Assembly: GCF_003334315.1 (NCBI RefSeq)
Contig: NZ_QOWR01000060.1
Strand: one strand, 5' to 3'
Origin: Escherichia coli
Lineage (GTDB): Bacteria; Pseudomonadota; Gammaproteobacteria; Enterobacterales; Enterobacteriaceae
Length of the DNA stretch: 28,819 bases
Shown: in pieces, positions 1 to 28,819 of the stretch
Numbering within the stretch: position 1 is the stretch's first letter
Layout of the letters: each line of letters starts with the position of its first letter
Notes under the pieces: model-generated
Database searches by the model: none
What the model was told of the DNA's origin: nothing
Seen by the model: the letters and a program-made list of their open reading frames with translations, nothing else
Translations under genes and position numbers: made by a program

Positions 1-50
1 GTCCATTTCCGCGCAGACGATGACGTCACTGCCCGGCTGTATGCGCGAGG

Positions 51-326
51 TTACCGACTGCGGCCTGAGTTTTTTAAATGGCGGAAAATCGTGTTGAGGC
101 CAACGCCCATAATGCGGGCGGTTGCCCGGCATCCAACGCCATTCATGGCCATATCAATGATTTTCTGGTGCGTACCGGGTTGAGAAGCGGTGTAAGTGAA
201 CTGCAGTTGCCATGTTTTACGGCAGTGAGAGCAGAGATAGCGCTGATGTCCGGCGGTGCTTTTGCCGTTACGCACCACCCCGTCAGTAGCTGAACAGGAG
301 GGACAGCTGATAGAAACAGAAGCCAC
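51..326 (-). CDS. insA: IS1 InsA (transposition inhibitor / N-terminal part of InsAB' transposase)
   Basis: 91-aa [43 protein letters not shown]... with the zinc-finger CxxC...CxxC and helix-turn-helix typical of InsA. Confidence 0.95.
69..75 (-). other. IS1 programmed -1 ribosomal frameshift motif (A6C) at the insA/insB' junction
   Basis: The + strand reads GTTTTTT, i.e. AAAAAAC on the coding strand, at the end of insA, followed by the insB' frame (ATGGACGAACAGTGG is the rc of the window start). Confidence 0.8.
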
Positions 327-381
327 TGGAGCACCTCAAAAACACCATCATACACTAAATCAGTAAGTTGGCATCATCACC

Positions 382-633
382 GTGAATTTCCCGATATTGT
401 GAGATTAAAGAATAATAATGTTCACAAACAGAACGTGGATCTTCACTTTCACCGGCTAAATCAGCAATGACTAATCCGGAACGACGTAATTGTAATAAGG
501 TAAGGTCCTCCGCAGAGGCGCTGGATATTATTTCATATTCAGGGAAGTGAGTCCTCATGACCTCTTTTAACCCTGCTTGCATAACAGGTATTTTACTGAT
601 AACAATTCCATTTTTGCAGCATCCTGGCAACAT
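382..633 (-). pseudogene. yjjQ: yjjQ 5' fragment (LuxR-family regulator), truncated by the IS1 insertion after about 83 codons
   Basis: The ORF starts [44 protein letters not shown]... (YjjQ N-terminus). The frame runs straight into the IS1 IRL at 381 and stops inside IS1 (...REIH|GDDANLLI*). Full-length YjjQ is about 241 aa as I recall. Confidence 0.85.
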
Positions 634-1253
634 ATTTCCTCCACATCCACTGTCTAAAAATTATGATGGTTTATTCAGGATATTCATTCCTTAAATGTTT
701 CCAGCAAATTAATAGATTAAGCGAATAAATTATCCTTAGCATTCACTTTCATATCAGCATACTCCTGCTGCACAACAACTCCACTGCATGTGTCAGAAGG
801 TTAGCATCAAATGATAACCTGGTGAAATAGCCTGGAGACATTTAAAATATCTACATTAAGTTGTTAGGAATACTTAATGAAAAACAGAAATCACATTCAT
901 TTAATTTATAATTAAATGATATCCCTTCCCGCAGAATGCGGGAATCACACAATCAATATTTATTCAATAAAATCTGATGATTTTAACTTGTTAACACTAA
1001 AAAACGCGCCCAGCTATCTATTATCCTGACCCGTAAAGGCTAAAACAATAAATTCATTATAGTGATAATATTCATGTGATAGTTTGTTTGCGGCGAGAGA
1101 TAATTCGCTTTTTATCACCGAGCTTGTCCCGATAACCAGGATTAATCAGCGCAATTTTGATCTTAACCTACCGCAAAACAACCGTGCTTCATGATACAAA
1201 TGGATTCTCATTATCTGAACAATACGCAGCACGTCTATGACAAAGGGCGAGTT
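634..1253. promoter_or_regulatory. yjjQ / yjjP divergent intergenic region, strongly AT-rich
   Basis: About 600 bp of low-GC DNA between divergent genes, typical of nucleoid-protein (H-NS type) silenced divergent promoters. Contains a perfect hairpin TTCCCGCA-GAA-TGCGGGAA at 926..944. Confidence 0.5.
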
Positions 1254-2024
1254 ATGCAAACTGAGCAACAGCGAGCCGTAACGCGGCTTTGTATCCAGTG
1301 TGGATTATTTCTTTTGCAACATGGTGCGGAAAGCGCGTTGGTTGATGAGCTTTCCTCACGACTGGGTCGGGCGTTGGGAATGGACAGCGTCGAAAGTTCT
1401 ATCTCTTCGAACGCCATAGTGCTGACAACTATTAAAGATGGGCAATGCCTGACATCGACACGAAAAAATCACGATCGCGGCATTAATATGCATGTGGTGA
1501 CTGAAGTCCAGCACATTGTGATTCTTGCGGAGCATCATCTGCTGGATTACAAAGGCGTAGAGAAACGATTTAGCCAAATTCAGCCATTACGTTACCCAAG
1601 ATGGCTGGTAGCCTTAATGGTTGGCCTTTCTTGCGCCTGTTTCTGTAAACTCAATAACGGTGGCTGGGATGGTGCCGTCATCACCTTCTTTGCCAGTACG
1701 ACCGCGATGTATATCCGTCAGCTGCTGGCACAACGTCATCTTCATCCACAGATCAACTTTTGCCTTACCGCTTTCGCCGCCACCACCATTTCCGGATTGC
1801 TTTTGCAACTCCCCACTTTCAGCGATACACCCACCATTGCGATGGCCGCCAGCGTTCTGCTGCTGGTGCCGGGCTTTCCGTTGATTAATGCCGTCGCCGA
1901 TATGTTTAAAGGCCACATCAATACCGGACTGGCACGCTGGGCGATCGCCAGTCTGCTGACGCTGGCTACCTGCGTCGGCGTGGTGATGGCACTGACGATT
2001 TGGGGGCTACGCGGATGGGTGTGA
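1254..2024 (+). CDS. yjjP: YjjP, ThrE-family inner-membrane protein (putative dicarboxylate exporter subunit)
   Basis: ORF 1191..2024; start placed at the internal ATG at 1254 ([12 protein letters not shown]...) to give the ~256-aa protein I recall. Multiple hydrophobic segments in the C-terminal half. Confidence 0.9.
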
Positions 2025-2488
2025 TCGAGTTTCTGTTTGCATTGGCGCAGGATATGATCCTCGCCGCCATTCCAGCGGTCGGCTTTGCGATGGTGTTCAA
2101 CGTTCCCGTGCGGGCGTTACGCTGGTGTGCGCTGCTTGGCGCGATTGGCCATGGTTCACGAATGATCTTAATGACCAGCGGGCTGAATATTGAGTGGTCA
2201 ACTTTTATGGCTTCTATGCTGGTCGGCACCATTGGTATTCAATGGTCGCGCTGGTATCTGGCGCATCCGAAAGTGTTTACCGTGGCGGCCGTTATCCCTA
2301 TGTTCCCGGGCATATCGGCTTATACCGCAATGATTTCGGCGGTAAAAATCAGCCAGTTAGGTTACAGCGAACCGTTGATGATTACCCTGTTAACCAACTT
2401 TCTTACAGCTTCATCGATTGTTGGTGCGTTATCCATCGGTCTTTCCATTCCTGGATTATGGTTGTACCGCAAGCGCCCTCGCGTATAA
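2015..2488 (+). CDS. yjjB: YjjB, small inner-membrane protein partner of YjjP
   Basis: ORF 2000..2488; start at ATG 2015 ([20 protein letters not shown]...), overlapping the yjjP stop by 10 bp, which suggests translational coupling. Hydrophobic throughout. Confidence 0.9.
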
Positions 2489-27606: not shown

Positions 27607-27692
27607 TCGTGAAAGGTTGAGTGTAAAGCAGCTCAATGCCCCATTTAGCAGTGAGGGGGGAAACAGAACGACGTGCTCCCCTCCGCTAAGTT

Positions 27693-27884
27693 TTATTGCG
27701 CGTGAATACCTGGATCTGGCAAAAAATTGCCGCGTTTGGCGTCAGACCATGCTTCGCTACCAGAAGCAGGAATGTCGCTGTAATCAATGTCTTCGTCGGA
27801 TTTATTAACCAAAGCCATGAGTTCAGCTTCTTGCTGCACATCAAGTGTGTAGAGTGTGCCCCGTTTATGTTTAACCATGCTCAT
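27693..27884 (-). CDS. Hypothetical small acidic protein (63 aa) with a DEDIDYSDIP motif; possibly a remnant of a small antitoxin-like gene
   Basis: ORF MSMVKHKRGTLYTLDVQQEAELMALVNKSDEDIDYSDIPASGSEAWSDAKRGNFLPDPGIHAQ, 39 bp downstream of the 137-aa ORF on the same strand, with an AAAGG SD-like sequence upstream. No family assignment could be verified. Confidence 0.4.
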   Translation of the reverse strand: MSMVKHKRGTLYTLDVQQEAELMALVNKSDEDIDYSDIPASGSEAWSDAKRGNFLPDPGIHAQ

Positions 27885-27923
27885 TTATGACCAGAACCTT
27901 TACGATTTAATTATAAAGATGAC

Positions 27924-28337
27924 TTATTTCAGCCATCCAGGCACGTTATATTCTGAGACATTCTCAATGGAATATGCATCTCTCCTGTCAGAACCTTTCT
28001 TACACTTCAACTCATTGAACCCCCATTTACCCTCTCTATTGGAATAAAATACAGTATATTTATCGGTATTAAACCCGAAATATCTTTCATCCGGACGTGA
28101 AATATTCAACTCTCCACATTTAACCTGACTGCGCCATTCAAAATCTATGGTGCTTTTTAAAACGTAGTACGAAATATTCTCTACATTTTTTGAAGCAAAA
28201 ACTACTAAAATAGTAGATACTATAAATGCTCCGGCAAGTATAAATAACCTATACACACTTAATTTAGTCCCCAGAGTTAAAAAAGCAAAATAGATAATAA
28301 GTTGCATCAACATGAAGAAAATTAACAAAAAAGCCAT
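27924..28337 (-). CDS. Hypothetical membrane-anchored protein (137 aa; two N-terminal hydrophobic helices plus an ~85-aa soluble domain) in a very AT-rich segment
   Basis: ORF MAFLLIFFMLMQLIIYFAFLTLGTKLSVYRLFILAGAFIVSTILVVFASKN... followed by a Lys/Asn/Tyr-rich domain. GC content is far below the neighbouring genes. The start codon lies 30 bp from the IS1 IRR end, and IS1 transcription is oriented toward it. Confidence 0.5.
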   Translation of the reverse strand: MAFLLIFFMLMQLIIYFAFLTLGTKLSVYRLFILAGAFIVSTILVVFASKNVENISYYVLKSTIDFEWRSQVKCGELNISRPDERYFGFNTDKYTVFYSNREGKWGFNELKCKKGSDRRDAYSIENVSEYNVPGWLK

Positions 28338-28366
28338 CCCTTTCCAGAAATACTCAACCCATGGTG

Positions 28367-28819
28367 GGTAATGACTCCAACTTATTGATAGTGTTTTATG
28401 TTCAGATAATGCCCGATGACTTTGTCATGCAGCTCCACCGATTTTGAGAACGACAGCGACTTCCGTCCCAGCCGTGCCAGGTGCTGCCTCAGATTCAGGT
28501 TATGCCGCTCAATTCGCTGCGTATATCGCTTGCTGATTACGTGCAGCTTTCCCTTCAGGCGGGATTCATACAGCGGCCAGCCATCCGTCATCCATATCAC
28601 CACGTCAAAGGGTGACAGCAGGCTCATAAGACGCCCCAGCGTCGCCATAGTGCGTTCACCGAATACGTGCGCAACAACCGTCTTCCGGAGACTGTCATAC
28701 GCGTAAAACAGCCAGCGCTGGCGCGATTTAGCCCCGACATAGCCCCACTGTTCGTCCATTTCCGCGCAGACGATGACGTCACTGCCCGGCTGTATGCGCG
28801 AGGTTACCGACTGCGGCCT
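28367..28819 (-). mobile_element. IS1: IS1 insertion sequence, right (IRR-proximal) portion containing insB
   Basis: IRR at 28367..28389 (GGTAATGACTCCAACTTATTGAT); InsB ORF; 28754..28819 is identical to 1..66, so the two window ends join into one complete 768-bp IS1. Confidence 0.95.
28382..28759 (-). CDS. insB: IS1 InsB (catalytic part of the InsAB' transposase, made by a -1 frameshift)
   Basis: [47 protein letters not shown]...[15 protein letters not shown] matches IS1 InsB. Confidence 0.95.

Follow-up and report, generated by a model that had tools for sequence, protein, structure and literature searches.

The 28,819-nt contig NZ_QOWR01000060.1 of Escherichia coli (assembly GCF_003334315.1), the whole of which is referred to here as the window, ends on both sides in the insertion sequence (IS) IS1, and this raises the question of whether it represents a circular or tandemly repeated unit closed by a single IS1 or a segment lying between two separate IS1 copies. 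Positions 1–66 are 100% identical to positions 28754–28819, which form the sole long direct repeat within the window, and IS1 lies on the minus strand at either end, as two fragments in the same orientation (1–381 and 28367–28819) that give 768 bp when joined through the 66-nt overlap. Sequence comparisons suggest, with a probability of roughly 0.88, that two independent direct IS1 copies bound an ordinary chromosomal contig and that no circle or tandem unit is needed. The terminal features are as follows.

1–381, minus strand: left IS1 fragment, IS1 positions 1–381 counted from the left inverted repeat (IRL), including the start of insB; haplotype designated IS1var, with the variant IRL GGTGATGaTGCC
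51–326, minus strand: insA, an open reading frame (ORF) of 91 amino acids
67–80 (reverse complement), minus strand: A6C frameshift motif CATTTAAAAAACTC
382–390: 9 bp of yjjQ adjoining IRL, GTGAATTTC; presumably a single copy of the yjjQ::IS1 target-site duplication, its partner lying outside the window
28358–28366: 9 bp adjoining the right inverted repeat (IRR) of the IS1 resident in the lineage, CCCATGGTG; no match on the far side in relatives
28367–28819, minus strand: right IS1 fragment, IS1 positions 316–768 counted from IRL, 3′ part of insB

The left fragment terminates with IRL, whose end at 381 reads ...AGTAAGTTGGCATCATCACC followed directly by GTGAATTTC, and the right fragment opens with IRR, where CCCATGGTG is followed at 28367 by GGTAATGACTCC. 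The length of about 768 bp, the imperfect inverted repeats (GGTGATGCTGCCAACTTA / GGTAATGACTCCAACTTA), and insA and insB with the A6C programmed frameshift are those of the IS1 family; the IRR of the window is exact relative to IS1, and the IRL has one variant base (GATGATGCC). Identical IS1 copies in relatives are annotated as 'IS1-like element IS1A family transposase, programmed frameshift'. When re-read from the sequence, the end coordinates, the identity of the repeat, the IS1 orientation, and the two flanking 9-mers (GTGAATTTC and CCCATGGTG), which differ, were all as described in the initial annotation. Its sum, 381 + 453 − 66 = 768, is arithmetically correct and carries no independent information, because each fragment begins at an end of IS1 and the two overlap in the coordinates of the element, which makes the total automatic. 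The identity of the overlap is likewise not evidence of one molecule, because any two near-identical IS1 fragments would match there. As for the 8–9-bp target duplication of IS1, the window shows only one junction per copy.

At least 21 closed chromosomes match the right junction without interruption over 400 nt. Eight relatives were inspected at this site, and in all eight the junction is part of a full 768-bp IS1 with a canonical IRL (...GGCAGCATCACC) that runs on into chromosomal DNA of the hsd/mcr region. In seven of them, this IS1 differs from the left fragment of the window at sites 465, 468, 471, 507, and 761 (site numbers are positions in the joined IS1, in window orientation), and in six (TOE3, L6-21, PSS-13, cM2a, 2018-11-3CC, and ET76) it is identical to the right fragment of the window at 453 of 453 positions. 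Because the right-junction IS1 of the relatives has the canonical IRL and the differing sites, the two fragments of the window match two different haplotypes.

The distal flanks of the right-junction IS1 vary among the relatives (AACTGCTCA..., CATCTGTCC..., or CGGTGCGGA...) and correspond to an hsdS gene cut short, to a position upstream of symE, or to a DUF262 gene that is likewise cut short; if the right copy of the window continues into the chromosome, AACTGCTCAAACG, CATCTGTCCGAGG, or CGGTGCGGATGTG would follow the canonical IRL. CCCATGGTG was never repeated on the far side of this IS1 in the eight relatives. The constant proximal junction with varied far flanks is the product of successive nested IS1 adjacent deletions, which erode the hsd/mcr 'immigration control' region. 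In the relatives, the missing target duplication of the right copy is thus due to old adjacent deletions beyond its distal end, and it reflects the history of the lineage and not a novel joint. In JX21CE33, two direct IS1 copies (33853–34620 and 37798–38565 of the locus), 3.2 kb apart, bracket hsdS′-symE-GmrSD-DUF262′. The right-junction IS1 of this strain is a mosaic, unlike IS1var at 197, 373, 376, and 761 and like IS1var at 465–507, which suggests gene conversion or recombination between IS1 copies.

At the left junction, the yjjQ ORF runs into IS1 (355–633, minus strand, 92 amino acids) and is truncated at codon 84. The gene is intact in TOE3, 13C1065T, and JX21CE33, and among 5,426 closed genomes the exact junction had no uninterrupted match, the best matches being in several pieces or representing different insertions nearby. 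Because yjjQ is intact in relatives and the exact junction is absent from closed genomes, yjjQ::IS1 is a derived insertion. An identical 92-amino-acid YjjQ′-IS1 fusion ORF was found on four Logan contigs from four independent runs (SRR10357290 and SRR3824135 among them). These contigs, produced with a different assembler and k, share with the window both the junction and the variant IRL base, and they continue for 28–29 nt into IS1 without branching at the join, which indicates that an intact yjjQ allele is not co-present.

The joined 768-bp sequence occurs as single natural IS1 copies (768/768) in 13 closed records of the lineage, including JX21CE33, in which IS1var lies within a DUF262 gene, 3.9 kb beyond the right-junction IS1, and is bordered on each side by GCCGTTGTT, a perfect 9-bp duplication. 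The possibility that joining the fragments had artificially created a chimera from two haplotypes was rejected, as the joined haplotype is natural in these 13 records; the haplotype argument therefore rests on the right-junction copies of the relatives and not on chimerism. The one-base variant of the IRL, at 359–381, is GGTGATGaTGCC instead of the usual GGTGATGcTGCC. Because the copies in the 13 closed records are 100% identical and have normal 9-bp duplications, the variant IRL end is transposition-competent.

Strain ZH142 carries a complete IS1 at the exact yjjQ site of the window, in the opposite orientation, with GTGAATTTC on both sides. Most parsimoniously, IS1var thus entered yjjQ by simple insertion and duplicated GTGAATTTC, the second copy of which we infer. 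The predicted second yjjQ junction (junction B) reads ...CCCAGTGAATTTC followed by GGTAATGACTCC, also written CCCAGTGAATTTC followed by GGTAATGACTCCAAC. The initial annotation had proposed that IS1 joins two unrelated loci and that this is not a simple insertion. This proposal did not hold, given that the loci lie in native order, as described below, and that GTGAATTTC is an IS1 target duplication in ZH142; the difference between the two 9-mers arises because each borders a separate IS1 copy.

The interior of the window is a native chromosomal interval. Its 27,985 unique bases (382–28366) differed from TOE3 by nine mismatches and no indels in an ungapped comparison, and the same result was obtained for JX21CE33. 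The interval is covered to at least 80% by 2,037 closed E. coli genomes in its native position and order, and at least 17 genomes of one lineage, which includes TOE3, L6-21, JX21CE33, PSS-13, 13C1065T, cM2a, and 2018-11-3CC, match at a rounded 100% over 24,967 bases. In relatives, the outer flanks are the native neighbours, and yjjQ and the segment distal to yjiA lie 28 kb apart, in native order, on every such chromosome.

The length of the terminal repeat was also examined in terms of assembly. The polymorphic sites nearest to the overlap are 376, at which the JX21CE33 right-junction copy differs from IS1var, and 465, at which the TOE3-type copy differs from it; the right-junction copy of JX21CE33 also makes site 373 polymorphic within the lineage. 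Between 376 and 465 lies an invariant stretch of 88 nt (IS1 377–464). The window ends at IS1 453, which is 376 + 77, and starts at IS1 388, which is 465 − 77, and its two outermost 77-mers are placed as follows (IS1 positions in window orientation).

1–77: first 77 nt of the window, IS1 388–464; diverging 77-mer vertex just before polymorphic site 465
28743–28819: last 77 nt of the window, IS1 377–453; converging 77-mer vertex, immediately past polymorphic site 376

A toy de Bruijn graph was built from the three IS1 haplotypes observed in the lineage, each with its own flanks. At k = 77, the graph had a converging vertex at 377–453 and a diverging vertex at 388–464, which are the outermost 77-mers of the window at its right and left ends, respectively. 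At k = 55, the vertices were 377–431 and 410–464, which are not the window ends, and at k = 99 the shared vertices vanished. Two 77-mers in an 88-nt edge overlap by 2 × 77 − 88 = 66 nt, the length of the terminal repeat. Both ends of the contig are thus branching k-mers of the repeat at a standard k, namely 77, and because the window ends at branching 77-mers, the strain should contain several IS1 haplotypes and hence several IS1 copies. Short-read assembly offers the best explanation of the 66-nt terminal repeat, which would be a by-product predicted from k = 77 and the two documented sites. A pure unitig or a circle assembled by Velvet at k = 67, in which the closing overlap of k − 1 would be 66 nt, was rejected because a genome with many copies of IS1 does not allow an unbranched cycle through this element and because both window ends are obtained independently at k = 77.

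Taken together, these observations point to the following origin of the window. It would be a whole short-read contig from a de Bruijn assembler at k = 77, such as SPAdes (both the assembler and k being deduced from the ends), and its source would be an E. coli isolate of an IS1-rich lineage with TOE3, JX21CE33, 13C1065T, and PSS-13 as closed relatives. The contig would span the normal interval yjjQ-yjjP-dnaTC-opgB-lgo-tsr-hpa-btsT-yjiXA and halt inside two different IS1 copies. The right-hand copy would be an old resident IS1 at the hsd/mcr edge, with a distal flank presumably similar to those of the relatives, and the left-hand copy would be a newer, simple IS1var insertion at yjjQ codon 84, presumably with the GTGAATTTC duplication. 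The remainder of the yjjQ copy, the predicted second yjjQ junction, the 3′ part of yjjQ, and bglJ would lie on another contig. The ends would have halted at the two branching 77-mers that bound the invariant 88-nt stretch IS1 377–464, leaving the 66-nt terminal repeat.

Several points weigh against two independent copies. Junction B was not found in any searchable collection, and the target duplication in this strain is accordingly a prediction. A degenerate pattern consisting of the observed yjjQ junction (junction A) and the predicted junction B, and excluding intact yjjQ, gave no hits in JGI metagenome contigs or GTDB representative genomes, and a look-up with the C-terminal YjjQ fragment (154 amino acids) gave 1,206 blocks, which made it too common to be informative, only large unrelated genomes (e.g., Shigella) being returned. 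The contig also passes further potential IS1 branch points (197, 373/376, 507, 761, and the IS boundaries), and to pass them would plausibly require read-pair-guided extension or variants that are absent from the strain; the fragment lengths of 381 and 453 nt are of the order of an insert size, as would be the case for read-pair-guided extension from the unique flanks. Finally, the joined IS1 is itself a natural haplotype, and a single IS1var linking both junctions would still fit the sequence of the window taken by itself.

Such a single linking copy could stand in a tandem array, in which the 28-kb segment was duplicated or amplified through unequal recombination between direct copies, with one IS1 per joint (IS1–28 kb–IS1–28 kb–IS1). 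Such events start from a pair of direct IS1 copies, the haplotype obtained on joining the fragments is that of a viable IS1, and the assembly graph would look alike apart from depth. However, this arrangement requires the two-copy structure as its precursor anyway, the right copy in the relatives has the non-variant haplotype, and IS1 was present at both sites in none of the 5,426 closed genomes, let alone with a duplication; the unbranched contigs from Logan contradict any tandem in which an intact yjjQ persists. We regard the tandem array as improbable. The same low standing applies to the proposal that, in a sub-lineage, two direct IS1 copies recombined to give a tandem amplification of the 28-kb dnaTC-tsr-hpa segment or a transient circle bearing IS1. 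If true, this would be a chromosomal analogue of the IS1-flanked r-determinant and would raise the dosage of the hpa catabolic island and of dnaC and dnaT.

Still less probable is a free circle of about 28,753 bp, comprising IS1 and the 28-kb segment and generated by IS1–IS1 recombination or intramolecular replicative transposition. The terminal direct repeat and the shared orientation of the fragments would suit a circle, but no plasmid replication gene or origin was found among the 26 ordinary chromosomal genes, and excision would strip the chromosome of dnaT and dnaC, which are regarded as essential and whose loss from the chromosome would not be tolerated. The same junction was moreover stable in the four independent runs, and an overlap of 66 nt is not the k or k − 1 closure of common assembler settings but exactly 2 × 77 − 88. 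No such circle is recorded in PLSDB or IMG/VR; in PLSDB, neither the window nor any 28.7-kb record was found, only records of 0.37–4.9 Mb and unrelated hpa plasmids. Several of the PLSDB records of 0.37–4.9 Mb carry the dnaTC-tsr-hpa interval and are apparently chromosomes or fragments deposited or classified as plasmids. Neither junction was present in IMG/VR, JGI metagenome contigs, or GTDB representative genomes. Thus, the window has neither replication functions of its own nor an independent closed-circle record; nor does it behave as a Tn9-like composite transposon, as the block was found in its native position only, not in varied contexts and with no duplication around the unit. The most doubtful explanation is that the junction between yjjQ and IS1 is an assembly chimera and that yjjQ of the strain is intact. 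The identical junction with its variant IRL base was assembled independently in four Logan runs, and an insertion at the same 9-mer exists in ZH142; these findings outweigh the absence of the exact junction from closed genomes, the one point in favour of a chimera.

Of the two alternatives offered in the initial annotation, two direct IS1 copies thus fit all the evidence, with a resident IS1 on the right and a different haplotype on the left, and the circular or tandem unit was left without support because the window is collinear with normal chromosomes, no such record was found, and the 66-nt overlap is predicted by k = 77. The statement that the unit is poised for amplification or deletion is valid only in the generic sense in which it applies to any direct IS pair in a genome with dozens of copies. 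All of this is standard IS1 biology, including the 768-bp length, insA and insB, 9-bp duplications, adjacent deletions, and a site preference, and standard assembly behaviour; both are already known. The case serves as a caution that a contig with a perfect direct terminal repeat and ends that sum to one IS can be mistaken for a circular element; any completeness check that relies on terminal repeats would fall into the same error. In biological terms, all that the window adds is a new insertion of IS1 in yjjQ, and the lineage was already full of this element. Of modest additional interest are the recurrent targeting of yjjQ just upstream of the silenced bglJ and the repeated erosion of the restriction-modification region by a resident IS1.

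The gene annotation of the interior was transferred from TOE3 (NZ_CP069086.1) with an offset of 4649, and all 26 complete genes moved over in this way correspond to intact ORFs of the window. The gene content reported initially, with dnaT, dnaC, tsr, and a complete hpa cluster, was confirmed as present with intact ORFs.

382–633, minus strand: 5′ part of yjjQ, codons 1–84, cut by IS1
1254–4417, plus strand: yjjP, yjjB, dnaT (2595–3134), dnaC (3137–3874), and yjjA
4671–12466: opgB (plus strand), lgoD (minus strand), lgoR (plus strand), lgoT (plus strand), and tsr (10802–12466, minus strand)
12585–23762: hpa cluster, with hpaR (minus strand) and hpaG-E-D-F-H-I, hpaX, hpaA, hpaB, and hpaC (plus strand)
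24155–28337: btsT, yjiX, and yjiA (plus strand), a 63-amino-acid 'antitoxin' (27693–27884, minus strand), and a 137-amino-acid hypothetical protein (27924–28337, minus strand)

Between yjiA and IS1 are located the genes for the 63-amino-acid 'antitoxin' and the 137-amino-acid protein, the latter annotated as a hypothetical or 'membrane domain' protein. Neither had a significant match to an NCBIfam or PADLOC family, and the sole match of the family searches was a weak one of the 137-amino-acid protein to the ThsA Macro domain (E = 0.0037). Together, the two genes make up an uncharacterised module on the margin of the restriction/defence region. Clusters of palindromic repeats of the repetitive extragenic palindromic/bacterial interspersed mosaic element (REP/BIME) type (GCCGGATGCGGCGTAAACGCCTTATCCGGCCTAC-like) were observed at 17312–17349, 18969–19084, and 26311–26389; they are intergenic and follow hpaF, hpaI, and btsT.

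IS1 has repeatedly entered yjjQ. Six independent IS1 insertions were found in yjjQ of closed E. coli genomes, five of them within about 30 bp around codons 77–88. Complete insertions with duplications are present in FAM21845 (GCGCTCTGA), GCU-H1 (GAGCAGTTC), W21 (TGAAAACC), and HZ13 (GATTAAAGA); the W21 insertion lies 10 bp from the site of the window, and the duplications at yjjQ in other strains are of the normal 8–9 bp. In PSS-11, IS1 lies 3 bp from the site of the window, and the 3′ part of yjjQ is deleted. Elements of the IS3 family were also seen in yjjQ at two other loci examined. The yjjQ-bglJ operon is silenced by H-NS, and a miniTn10 inserted upstream of bglJ makes bglJ expression constitutive (PMC3950696); in evolution experiments in the mouse gut, selection repeatedly favoured IS insertions in the regulatory region of yjjP/yjjQ (PMC5094792). 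The recurrence at yjjQ may stem from a preference for an AT-rich, H-NS-bound target, from selection favouring a change in yjjQ-bglJ expression, or from a combination of the two. The IS1 genes in yjjQ of the window point in the same direction as yjjQ-bglJ (1–633, minus strand). By analogy with the miniTn10-driven allele, read-through from IS1 could transcribe bglJ. The window shares with that constitutive allele a mobile element that interrupts the operon upstream of bglJ; it differs in that the element is another one and bglJ lies outside the window.

The window resembles other short-read contigs broken in multi-copy IS elements in that both of its ends lie in a repeat, at branching k-mers, and its interior is single-copy chromosomal DNA. 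IS1 is such a repeat, being present in dozens of copies, with at least 40 pieces in most of the relatives listed. The window differs from such contigs in that its ends bracket one short shared graph edge, which gives a 66-nt overlap that mimics a circular contig. Compared with the IS1 insertion polymorphism of E. coli, it has the same length, inverted repeats, insA, A6C motif, 9-bp duplications (in sister copies), and one-end deletions, and it differs only by the one-base IRL variant of the yjjQ copy. Segments flanked by IS1 that can be amplified or excised are exemplified by the r-determinant of plasmid R100/NR1 and by Tn9. The window shares with these a direct IS1 pair around a segment, recombination between which could in principle excise or amplify it. 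In contrast to them, it is a native interval in native order that contains essential genes and bears no sign of movement as a unit, and its two IS1 copies are independent insertions of different haplotypes and ages.

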